The notes beneath the pieces are model-generated. The model was not told where the DNA came from, did not search any database, and saw only the letters and a program-made list of their open reading frames with translations. Both the position numbers and the translations under genes were made by a program. A stretch of 64,000 nucleotides of DNA, taken from positions 1-64,000 of IMG/VR virus record IMGVR_UViG_3300032293_001706; one strand, given 5' to 3'. Below, one piece after another: positions 1-3,026 of the stretch (the stretch's first letter is position 1; every line of letters starts with the position of its first letter). This stretch comes from a virus.

Positions 1-416
1 ACCTGATAAAATCCATATTTCAATCTGTCGGCATATTCTTTAACTTTGTTATAGAACTCATCAGGAATGTCTTTGAGTAATTCATTGATGTCACCACCAT
101 TAGATAAATGTTCCCAAACACCAGTGGTTGAGATATTGGTCATTATTTTATGAAGACGCAAGTATTCTTCGCCTTTGATTTTCATTCGGTCTCCGTTTGA
201 AAAACGAACAACAAATCCTTCAGCGTTTTGTTCAACTTTACCCTTTAACTCGGAATAATCCCGAACTCCGTCATATTTTTTGACAACATCGAAACCTTCT
301 AATGATTTAAGTTCTAAGTATGGAATTTCATTACCTGTTTCAGTGTTAAACGCACCAAGTAATACAAGACCCTCATAATCACCATAATCTACAACTATTC
401 TATTTTGACCTCCCAT
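1..416 (-). CDS. RNA ligase (Rnl1-like), C-terminal half; runs off the window edge
   Basis: Not in the ORF track; translated by hand from ATG at 416: MGGQNRIVVDYGDYEGLVLLGAF...AEGFVVRFSNGDRMKIKGEEYLRLHKIMT. Contains ligase motif IV (EGFVV) and motif V (KIK). Confidence 0.85.
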   Translation of the reverse strand, partial: MGGQNRIVVDYGDYEGLVLLGAFNTETGNEIPYLELKSLEGFDVVKKYDGVRDYSELKGKVEQNAEGFVVRFSNGDRMKIKGEEYLRLHKIMTNISTTGVWEHLSNGGDINELLKDIPDEFYNKVKEYADRLKYGFYQ

Positions 417-423
417 AATTTTT

Positions 424-1128
424 TTATTTATTTTTACAATTTTCAAAATGCCATCTATACATTAACCCTTCACCACCTTCTTTACCACAATATGGACAAA
501 TTATTTTTTTTCTTGGTATCCCTTTAGTTTTTGATGGTTTTCCTTTTTTCGATTCACTTATTTTTCTTTTTGTATTCTCACTTTTATTTTTACCTGGATT
601 GTTTTCAGTAAAATATTTTTTTCTATACTCCTTAAACTCATCACTACGTGTTTTTCCATACATAGGATTTAATTTGCCAACGTATTTACCTTTCATAGAT
701 TGACTTTGTTTTGGTCTTTTTTGACCCTTATTTGATTTACTAATTTTATCCCCAATTTCTTTGGCTCTTTTCTCACCAAATCGTTCAATGAAGGTTTTAT
801 TTGAATATAATTTTTTATATTTTTCTTTTATTTCCCCTGATGGGTTATTTAAACCATCACCTCCATCAGTCATATTAACTAAAATACCTTCATTCAAATC
901 TTTTCTACCATAAATTTTAATCCAATATTTTTCCCTTTCAGATGCGTCTTCCCAAGATAAATTATCTTCGATTATTTCAAATTTAAATCCAACTTTTTTA
1001 ACGATAAAATTCCAATACCTATTCCTACTTTTTTTATCAGATGCTCTTTTGTAATCAGTATCACTACCAATACCAACATAAAAAATCTGATTATTGTCAT
1101 TTCTTTTGTGGATATAAACGTACGCCAT
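424..1128 (-). mobile_element. GIY-YIG homing endonuclease with NUMOD3-like repeats and C-terminal Zn finger, inserted in the RNA ligase gene
   Basis: N-terminal YVYIH...FYVGIG, GKLNPMYGKTRS and SENTKRKISESKKG repeats, CPYC...HFENC tail; lies between the two ligase halves. Confidence 0.8.
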
Positions 1129-1177
1129 AAAGGTGATTTATTATAAATATCTTTTATAGTTAAAAACAATTCAATTA

Positions 1178-1597
1178 TTAGTAAATTATTTCAAAAAGGT
1201 ATGTGTTGTTTTTGTCTAAATTTTCTAATGGGTATTTTGAAGATAATTCTTTAGCTTTAATAGCTTGTTCAGACGTAAAAGAACCTCTAGTTGCGAATAT
1301 CCATTCATCGTTATAGTAAAATAATATGATACAACTACCATCCATCTTTTCAAAGACTTCAAATTCAGAAGTCGGAGTATGTTTACCTTCTTCAAGATTA
1401 AAAAACTTCTTGAAGGGTCTTGCAACTATATTTCCTTCATTATCAGTTACAAGACCACGACACATCAAAGTAATTTCATCCCACAATTCTTCATATTGAA
1501 CTTTAGGTGTATAGTTCCATATGGTTAAAGGCAACCTTGGGTGAGTCTGTTTATACAACAAACCAAGAGAATGATATTTTTCAAGAGTTTCCTTCAT
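1178..1597 (-). CDS. RNA ligase (Rnl1-like), N-terminal half
   Basis: CRGLV...ARPFKKFFN, adenylation motif EKMDGS, ATRGSF; ends at motif III YLFEIIY followed by TAA. Confidence 0.85.
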   Translation of the reverse strand: MKETLEKYHSLGLLYKQTHPRLPLTIWNYTPKVQYEELWDEITLMCRGLVTDNEGNIVARPFKKFFNLEEGKHTPTSEFEVFEKMDGSCIILFYYNDEWIFATRGSFTSEQAIKAKELSSKYPLENLDKNNTYLFEIIY

Positions 1598-1601
1598 ACT
1601 A

Positions 1602-1609
1602 CAAAATTA
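1602..1609 (-). promoter_or_regulatory. Bacteroidota-type -7 promoter element (TAATTTTG)
   Basis: Matches TAnnTTTG; 4 nt upstream of the ligase ATG. Confidence 0.55.
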
Positions 1610-1627
1610 CAAAAAAAGATGGACATA

Positions 1628-2029
1628 TCAAAGAAGTTTAATTTGGAACCTGTCCTTCATCGCCTGTAGTTTTTCTTCAGGAACACCGTGTTGGTTTACA
1701 CCATCATGTCTTTTTTCAACAATTATGGAATGAACACGATATCCATACTTTTCCGCCAATTTGAAATAATCCTCCATTTCCCACTCTTGGGTGAAAGTAT
1801 TTGAAACAACAACTGTTGGATGTTCATTGCTCATTAAAAATTCAACCTCATCCTTACACCATTGATGTGCTTCTTTTAATTGGGATGGATTAAACTTATA
1901 TTCACCGTCCCTATTTAGAAAAAACATGTCAGCTTCTTTGTGACAATAATCTTTATCACCAACCAAAGATTTAGCTAATGTCGATTTTCCTGCCCCAGGA
2001 ATTGAGCGGATTAGATATAGGTTTTTCAT
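1628..2029 (-). CDS. P-loop kinase (AAA_33 / polynucleotide kinase-like)
   Basis: LIRSIPGAGKSTLA Walker A, EADMFF, VVSNTFTQEWEM. Confidence 0.85.
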   Translation of the reverse strand: MKNLYLIRSIPGAGKSTLAKSLVGDKDYCHKEADMFFLNRDGEYKFNPSQLKEAHQWCKDEVEFLMSNEHPTVVVSNTFTQEWEMEDYFKLAEKYGYRVHSIIVEKRHDGVNQHGVPEEKLQAMKDRFQIKLL

Positions 2030-2030
2030 A

Positions 2031-2681
2031 TTAGTTAATTCGTTTTTCGTGATGGTCTTTTGGAAGAGAAAGTTTTTTAATTGGTCGGTTCTTCATAATT
2101 GACATAATTTCTTCATAAGAAATCGGATACATATTATTTCCATCCACACCAACATCCATCGCCTTTCCATCTGCAATCCTCAAATGAGGTGGAAGATGAA
2201 CGTGACCATGAAGGTGAATTATTCCATCATTCATTCCGTCCCAACTTGCAACTGGATAATGCATACACACCATTGTCGTTTTTTCAACCACTTCTCCTTT
2301 TGGAATCCTGATATCAAGATGCAAATAATCTCTAGTTGAAGAAAACAATTCTTGACAATTTTGTTTATTCCTACGAATGTGGTGGTCGTGATTACCGAAT
2401 GTCAGGTGAATATTTTTACAAACAATTCGATTTCGGAATTCTTCAATCATTTCAAAACCACCAAAAGACCAATCTCCAAGGTGAATCAAAATATCATCCT
2501 GACCAACAACTTCGTTAATGTTGTTAACCAGTGTGGAATTCATTTGTTCAAGACTTTTAAAGTCACGAGTCACACTATCAGAATCCTTCCATTTTGTGGT
2601 TGCCCGACAAATATTTGAATGGGAATAGTGAGTATCACTTGTAAAAAACAATTTTCGACCTTTTTCCAAAATAAATTTCAT
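2031..2681 (-). CDS. Calcineurin-like metallophosphoesterase
   Basis: SDTHY, HLGDWS, GNHD and HLHGHVH motifs. Confidence 0.9.
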   Translation of the reverse strand: MKFILEKGRKLFFTSDTHYSHSNICRATTKWKDSDSVTRDFKSLEQMNSTLVNNINEVVGQDDILIHLGDWSFGGFEMIEEFRNRIVCKNIHLTFGNHDHHIRRNKQNCQELFSSTRDYLHLDIRIPKGEVVEKTTMVCMHYPVASWDGMNDGIIHLHGHVHLPPHLRIADGKAMDVGVDGNNMYPISYEEIMSIMKNRPIKKLSLPKDHHEKRIN

Positions 2682-2685
2682 GAAG

Positions 2686-2693
2686 CAAAGATA
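2686..2693 (-). promoter_or_regulatory. Bacteroidota-type -7 promoter element (TATCTTTG)
   Basis: TAnnTTTG, 4 nt upstream of ATG 2681. Confidence 0.6.
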
Positions 2694-2723
2694 TAAAAAA
2701 TATTTGGACTTTCAAAAATTATC

Positions 2724-3026
2724 TCACAACAATTCACAAGTCAGATTGCCGTCAATCATTGTTGCTGATAACACATTTCTATCCAAAAATACCGCATTTT
2801 GTTCACCAGCATATAAACCAAGAATGTTATAATCATAATATTCTTCAGCCTCTTCAGAAGTCATTTGATGTATTCCCATTAATTTGTTTAAGATTCTGTT
2901 TTTATCATATAACAACCTTTTTCCGTTTCCAAATTCTTCAACAACTCCGACAATACAATCTTCAAGTCCTGTTAAAATCACCGCACCTTCAGCATATGAA
3001 TCAATATCAATCGTAAATTTTTCCAT
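2724..3026 (-). CDS. Hypothetical phage protein
   Basis: 100-aa ORF co-oriented with the repair genes; GLEDCIVG...YDKNRIL...EEAEEYYDYNILG looks like a common phage hypothetical. Confidence 0.7.
   Translation of the reverse strand: MEKFTIDIDSYAEGAVILTGLEDCIVGVVEEFGNGKRLLYDKNRILNKLMGIHQMTSEEAEEYYDYNILGLYAGEQNAVFLDRNVLSATMIDGNLTCELL

Follow-up and report, generated by a model that had tools for sequence, protein, structure and literature searches.

A mobile endonuclease cassette divides a T4 Rnl1-type RNA ligase gene of uncultured phages into two conserved halves, probably forming a two-chain enzyme

Among the gene arrangements reviewed as "genes in pieces" is nrdA-a/mobE/nrdA-b of Aeromonas phage Aeh1 (PMC2988022), for which assembly of the NrdA halves and insertion-derived docking peptides are described in PMC3045599. 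The same review covers essential enzyme genes divided at a single site, whether or not an endonuclease lies between the parts, namely gene 39/60-mobA of T4 and gene 43A/43B of Aeromonas phages 25/44RR, and Dassa et al. (2009; PMC2677866) reported "fractured genes", i.e., metagenomic phage enzymes broken in two around a free-standing endonuclease. Here, we analysed a further case, an RNA ligase gene of the T4 RNA ligase 1 (Rnl1) type, at the start of IMG/VR virus record IMGVR_UViG_3300032293_001706. The window, i.e., the whole stretch of DNA analysed, is the first 64 kb of this 190,552-bp linear viral contig, whose estimated completeness is 63%. Comparative sequence data indicate that a mobile cassette has split this gene, and we consider it likely that the two halves are translated separately and form one working two-chain ligase.

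The window begins at base 1 of the contig, and the features of the split ligase, all on the minus strand, follow one another in the order N-half, spacer, endonuclease, 7 nt and C-half:

1178..1597, minus strand: Rnl1-type RNA ligase N-half, 139 aa, ending LFEIIY-TAA (stop at 1178-1180)
1129-1177, minus strand: AT-rich spacer of 49 nt between the N-half and the endonuclease gene
424..1128, minus strand: GIY-YIG/NUMOD3 homing endonuclease gene, 234 aa, by Pfam and PHROGs
417-423, minus strand: 7-nt gap between the endonuclease gene and the C-half
3..416, minus strand: ligase C-half, starting MGGQNRIVV (ATG at 414-416) and opening MGGQNRIVVDYG

The N-half matches PF09511 (positions 2-91, E 6e-13, 49.5 bits for a cut-off of 28.3) and positions 25-165 of phrog_562 (E 3e-36). 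The C-half matches positions 167-298 of the latter (E 3e-24), the two halves adjoining on this profile at 165|167. As a first-pass annotation of the window had stated, the upstream half ends at FEIIY-TAA and carries the motif I lysine (K84 in EKMDGS, codon 1346-1348) and motif III (E136 in FEIIY, codon 1190-1192). Likewise, the downstream half was correctly read as restarting at a new ATG 7 nt past the endonuclease stop and as carrying motif IV (EGFVVRF; E66-G67, 216-221) and motif V (RMKIKG; K79/K81, 174-182); it also carries motif IIIa. The new ATG lies 766 nt downstream of the stop after FEIIY, and the ligase is not one polypeptide here. The endonuclease open reading frame (ORF) between the halves has its own start and stop and shares no reading frame with them. 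The C-half runs off the contig at base 3, leaving 138 aa against 196-226 aa in relatives; it is shortened by the end of the assembly and not by mutation, and about 60-80 aa lie beyond the contig. This missing end was absent from the other end of the 190-kb contig, in which no second ligase copy was found.

Phage endonuclease genes often lie within introns or inteins, and the two halves might be joined again at the RNA or protein level, through a cryptic group I intron, a split intein, ribosomal bypassing or read-through of the stop. The arrangement of one related locus (L080), in which the halves are in the same frame and 12 nt apart, could be read in this way. However, no group I or group II intron was matched in Rfam at E<=10 within positions 1-3000, and only 49 nt + 7 nt outside the endonuclease ORF are non-coding, which agrees with the earlier view that a group I intron core has no room at this locus. 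At the break, the N-half stops at the extein residue itself, with 0 residues added after FEIIY (Y139), and the C-half adds only M-G-G before QNRIVV. With 0 and 3 extra residues, neither an intein piece nor a docking peptide of the Aeh1 NrdA type is therefore possible. Bypassing of the T4 gene 60 type spans about 50 nt, against a protein-coding gap of 766 nt here; the ATG that relatives keep at the start of the C-half and the unequal frames of their halves speak against it as well. Besides, the halves are out of frame in three (L072, L094 and L103) of the four alleles that have no endonuclease, and read-through is therefore ruled out as a general mechanism. A weak hint in the same direction is an RNA-library contig of 175 nt, which is identical to the DNA over the boundary between endonuclease and C-half (335-509) and is unspliced; stretches that the RNA run does not cover carry no weight either way. 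On this evidence, rejoining of the halves is scarcely credible. A candidate joint from 299 to 1337 in DNA run X2 had low depth, a shorter side of 33 letters and 88% likeness, and was not used.

The likeness to Aeh1 nrdA/mobE that had been proposed for this locus thus points to the right class, the locus having the sequence-level features of that class and lacking those of introns, inteins and bypassing. As in Aeh1, a free-standing endonuclease gene lies inside a conserved catalytic region, the two polypeptides would have to reassemble, and control elements arrive with the endonuclease. Unlike in Aeh1, the host gene encodes an Rnl1 RNA ligase, the endonuclease is GIY-YIG instead of HNH, and the insertion has added only M-G-G and no interaction peptide; moreover, the split ligase is represented by hundreds of diverged alleles, its single break site takes up several types of insert, and some descendants have no endonuclease. 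The 44RR split without an endonuclease (PMC2988022) has its counterpart in L072, L080, L094 and L103. In contrast to T4 39/60 and gene 43, endonuclease-less spacers at the ligase locus hold terminal codons of the endonuclease, which settle the order of events, and no bypass element is present. As regards the fractured genes (PMC2677866), they likewise gain control elements with the endonuclease, and their Vsr-related endonuclease family resembles the insert of L004 and L079 here. They are mended by split inteins, whereas no intein residues flank the present break.

The position of the break was examined on the structure of T4 Rnl1 (gp63; PDB 2C5U, 5TT6), to which an intact homologue could be aligned (2C5U, E 6e-15). 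All five motifs (I, III, IIIa, IV and V) align, with catalytic residues K99 and E159 falling in the N-half and E227, K240 and K242 in the C-half. Unlike T4 Rnl1, which is one chain, the chain here ends at the equivalent of A162: the break corresponds to A162|P163, three residues past E159, the glutamate of motif III, and directly ahead of the NRIV strand. In an AlphaFold model of the intact homologue of L007 (pLDDT 92.6), FEIIY ends a beta strand (134-141), and an irregular segment of 14 residues separates it from the next strand. Because the cut falls at this modelled strand-loop boundary, it is a plausible place for a tolerated break.

Intact alleles, which the first-pass annotation had proposed to seek in relatives, are common. 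Using the N-half as query, 45 related viral contigs were recovered, and in 43 of them the ligase gene is contiguous, with one frame of 319-379 aa reading FEIIY-x-ENRIVV, mostly FEIIY-P-ENRIVV. The remaining two are a truncated gene and L004, whose break falls at the codon found in the window (FEIIY-TGA ... MGGKNRIVV). A search for short N-half proteins (76-244 aa, E<=1e-10) yielded 295 clusters; of the 120 listed, 92 have FEIIY as their very last residues. Short C-halves form 232 clusters, with 67 of the 120 listed starting M-x-x-(Q/K/R)-NRIV. Long ligase forms amount to 3069 clusters, giving a split fraction of very roughly 7% of the family. The FEIIY break is not private to this phage and is common in uncultured phages. 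DNA nearly identical to positions 1-1700 of the window was present in metagenomes of 14 studies, mostly freshwater, with one marine and one aquaculture; the window belongs to a widespread lineage and to a large freshwater phage.

A split allele may be dead, the endonuclease having inactivated a dispensable gene and the halves being pseudogene fragments that have not yet decayed. Indeed, T4 rnlA is non-essential when the host has no anticodon nuclease, and the break lies within the nucleotidyltransferase core. Stops and frameshifts would then accumulate in the halves, as the first-pass annotation had pointed out. Loci were collected with the DNA pattern TY-x-FEIIY-stop, which fixes the stop but not the state of the halves. 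This gave 34 ligase loci, 22 of them with both halves, and neither half contained an internal stop or frameshift in any of these 22, over an identity range of 41-100%. Their C-halves are complete at 196-226 aa in 20 loci and run off the contig in two. The KxDG of motif I is kept in 87/87 split N-halves examined, and motifs IV and V in 66/66 split C-halves. The ATG of the C-half is constant although the next two residues vary (MGG, MAG, MSG, MVG, MRG and others). Finally, endonuclease genes decay or vanish where the halves do not, as described below. A dead ligase is, in view of these counts, unlikely.

The insert at the break is exchangeable, and the loci could be sorted as follows:

GIY-YIG type A: window, L097, L052, L071, L118
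GIY-YIG type B: L051, L054, L060, L068, L077, L087, L089, L120, L121
Vsr-like endonuclease: L004/L053, L079
185-aa non-nuclease ORF: L066 (3801-4355), L105; 99% identical between the two loci
No insert ORF, spacer of 9-77 nt: L072, L080, L094, L103

Type B differs from type A in its N-terminal domain, and its tail is either zinc-finger-like as in type A or resembles the DNA-binding tail of I-TevI. The L004 endonuclease (322 aa, phrog_3339, DUF7487) has a C-terminal EINGDYWH motif and resembles the Vsr-related endonucleases reported by Dassa et al. The 185-aa ORF matches nothing but ART-PolyVal (ADP-ribosyltransferase), and that weakly and below the threshold. Since this ORF is far younger than its flanks (synonymous divergence, dS, of 0.09 vs 0.34/1.09), non-nuclease cargo also moves through the ligase break site.

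Loss of the endonuclease was observed at several loci. Three of the endonuclease-less spacers translate as ..KWHFDNCKYK-stop (L072), M-HRWYFNNCKNI-stop (L094) and YFNNCKYKI-stop (L103). These are the last codons of a GIY-YIG gene, and L094 also retains the gene start; therefore, the three alleles derive from endonuclease-bearing ones by internal deletion. Compared with L068, L065 has one nonsense codon in its endonuclease gene, and the L116 endonuclease gene contains an in-frame stop; the ligase halves of both loci are intact. Hence, the endonuclease decays or is lost while the halves persist, and the gene stays split.

Two relatives depart from these patterns. At L052 (4513-5985, minus strand), the N-half shares one ORF of 491 aa with an N6/N4 DNA methylase domain that precedes it in frame, which is either a real fusion or the result of a lost stop. 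P0112, a protein of 186 aa from a 1680-bp contig, reads NSILETIDIELENGNV.. past FEIIYG, unlike any ligase. This tail, located at the endonuclease break site, is faintly like the start of an intein; no intein domain was detected in it, and the contig ends soon after.

The endonuclease of the window appears, from its domains, to be a free-standing homing enzyme of the GIY-YIG class (Seg or I-TevI type). It matches PF01541 (27.6 bits, cut-off 22.6), NUMOD3 (28 bits, cut-off 20.4) and the "homing endonuclease" family phrog_314 (E 3e-20), and its C-terminal tail, besides NUMOD3 repeats, is zinc-finger-like (CPYCGKEGGEG..WHFENC). The copy in L097 is 85% identical. Three short elements on the minus strand accompany it:

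1140..1150, minus strand: promoter-like motif ATATTTATAAT, 11 nt upstream of the endonuclease ATG
1156..1172, minus strand: decayed target relic GAATTGTTTTTAACTAT, equivalent to codons R-I-V-V-D-Y after the break in intact alleles
417..446, minus strand: last endonuclease codons (..HFENCKNK-stop) with the 7-nt gap, forming the C-half leader

The roughly 50 AT-rich nt reported ahead of the endonuclease, which include a motif of the endonuclease's own, correspond to the 49-nt spacer, and ATATTTATAAT includes the motif TATTTATA noted at that time. ATATTTATAAT occurs once in the window, its core ATATTTAT 33 times against 21 expected, and the motif is common to L004 and other cassettes.

Together, the relic at 1156-1172 and the working copy at 384-400 make up an imperfect direct repeat. 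Of 32 distinct spacers, 14 carry such a relic, against about 0.2 expected from the background rate of the window; it is perfect in L116 and has 2-4 mismatches of 17 in the 13 others. About 20-30 bp of target are thus doubled, the copy ahead of the endonuclease being dead and the one past the new ATG working, an arrangement that would break up the presumed recognition site of the endonuclease in carriers. On the 3' side, a stretch of the form TTT(G/A)A(T/A)AATTGTAAA is conserved between the window (417-446, minus strand) and the spacers of L072, L094 and L103. It encodes the C-terminal F-(D/E/N)-N-C-K of the endonuclease and is kept when the remaining gene is deleted. Because this stretch is the leader of the C-half, it may double as an expression signal for that half.

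Mobility of the insert is illustrated by the dS values of three pairs of loci with a related insert:

window / L097: insert dS 0.57, N-half dS 1.24, C-half dS 1.42
L066 / L105: insert dS 0.09, N-half dS 0.34, C-half dS 1.09
L089 / L121: insert dS 0.32, N-half dS 1.31, C-half dS 1.41

In each of them, the insert is far below the flanking halves. Moreover, the nucleotide identity of the halves drops with distance from the insert, and the 25 codons on each side of it are 0.09-0.19 more alike than the remainder of the halves. Among 284 intact-intact control pairs, this difference averages -0.04, and values of 0.09-0.19 are attained by no more than 1%. The young inserts and the excess of identity near the junctions indicate that the cassette moves, and they bear the signature of homing with co-conversion. 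In a tree of the N-halves, the split state requires at least 12 changes (65-70 in label shuffles); however, this need not mean as many independent invasions, because a tree with the split alleles together in one clade was compatible with the approximately unbiased (AU) test (p 0.30).

This last result would also fit a gene that was already two genes, with endonucleases merely settling in the intergenic gap. Such a history has been suspected for gene 43 of Aeromonas phages 25/44RR, and both the endonuclease-less split alleles and the several unrelated inserts that occupy the gap could be expected from it. Yet, the spacers of L072, L094 and L103 hold the last GIY-YIG codons (that of L094 the start as well), and the 5' spacer stems from coding sequence that was displaced and that travels with the cassette. 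An earlier split of this kind is therefore quite unlikely.

Two genes that may act together with the ligase lie immediately beside it:

1628..2029, minus strand: P-loop kinase (AAA_33, polynucleotide-kinase-like), immediately upstream of the ligase
2031..2681, minus strand: calcineurin-like metallophosphoesterase, upstream of the kinase, by Pfam and PHROGs

In 43 related loci, some with a split and some with an intact ligase, one or both of them lie no more than a few kb away from it. T4 Pnkp and Rnl1 repair tRNA cut by host anticodon nucleases. By analogy, the kinase, the metallophosphoesterase and the ligase would make up an RNA heal-and-seal set, which probably counters host anticodon nucleases. 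The locus is thus like that of T4 in the linkage of ligase and end-healing enzymes; healing would be shared here between a separate kinase and metallophosphoesterase and is carried out by Pnkp in T4. In Flavobacterium phage immuto, the nearest cultured relative by its phosphoesterase gene, no ligase adjoins that gene.

This linkage also bears on the idea that the halves are kept for separate roles other than ligation, e.g., tail-fibre attachment or RNA binding by the C-half. Tail-fibre attachment by T4 gp63 is genetically separable from ligation, and phrog_562 is annotated with both activities. On the other hand, both halves always co-occur, the catalytic residues of both are conserved, and the kinase and phosphoesterase remain linked to split alleles. 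Separate non-ligase roles are, accordingly, very improbable.

Relatives of 628-712 aa (P0381, P0392 and about 20 other database proteins) combine an intact Rnl1 with a C-terminal P-loop kinase and a HAD phosphatase. They had been considered as intein-bearing alleles, a reading that was rejected, and they are ligase-Pnkp fusions, i.e., Pnkp-like heal-and-seal enzymes of one chain.

Function of the ligase as two chains is strongly supported by comparison, because the split is widespread, its halves are intact, endonuclease-less alleles exist and endonucleases decay beside intact halves. The comparative data thus favour the two-chain ligase with a shared active site that was initially proposed, and from them we infer separate translation, assembly and activity of the halves. 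The mechanism would be as follows. A mobile cassette has interrupted the T4 Rnl1-type ligase gene, with the break three residues beyond the glutamate of motif III, and supplies, in order, a stop, the decayed target codons, a late-type promoter-like motif, the GIY-YIG gene and a new ATG-GGN-GGN start. The halves would then be translated separately, the N-half with the AMP-accepting lysine and motif III and the C-half with motifs IIIa, IV and V and the C-terminal domain, and would assemble non-covalently into one active site. The assembled ligase would seal RNAs healed by the neighbouring kinase and phosphoesterase. The cassette would spread between phages by homing with co-conversion of the flanks, and its endonuclease ORF can be swapped, decay or be deleted, the gene staying in two pieces.

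Several points weigh against a working two-chain ligase. The C-half of the window is incomplete in the assembly, and the unspliced RNA-library contig could stem from contaminating DNA. The halves of split alleles show ratios of non-synonymous to synonymous divergence (dN/dS) of 0.04-0.30, which favour selection on the halves but are not fully separable from their time as intact genes. With T4 rnlA dispensable in hosts that have no anticodon nuclease, relaxed selection could pass unnoticed for a while. In addition, interaction peptides such as those added in Aeh1 NrdA are not available to explain assembly.

In the literature searched, no description of a split Rnl1 was found, an absence there being no proof. 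New at this locus are the descendants that have lost the endonuclease and retain remnants of it, the decayed copy of the target, and the signs of mobility that could be quantified. If the two-chain ligase holds, RNA ligase joins a very short list of enzymes surviving a split by a free-standing endonuclease, of which nrdA, topoisomerase and DNA polymerase are experimentally grounded. The loci form a natural series, in which intact alleles, four kinds of insert, broken endonuclease genes and remnants of a few codons represent the whole life cycle of the cassette, and loss of the endonuclease does not heal the ligase gene. More broadly, we are somewhat inclined to regard such cassettes as agents of irreversible gene fission, carrying a stop, a promoter and a start, that may have created a stable family of heteromeric RNA ligases with hundreds of members and an active site across the subunit interface. 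A natural split Rnl1 of this kind would give biochemists and tool builders an RNA ligase that already comes in two components, as well as a test case for a nucleotidyltransferase active site built from two chains without docking peptides.

A last observation concerns the other end of the contig. At L003:3219-3998 (contig 189771-190550), an ORF running off the contig repeats a 12-aa unit, VEDTIQNGVKNT, at least 10 times. These units are about 10 variable residues apart, which amounts to translation of a 36-bp repeat together with its 30-bp spacers, and the repeat ORF probably caused the break of the assembly at this end.

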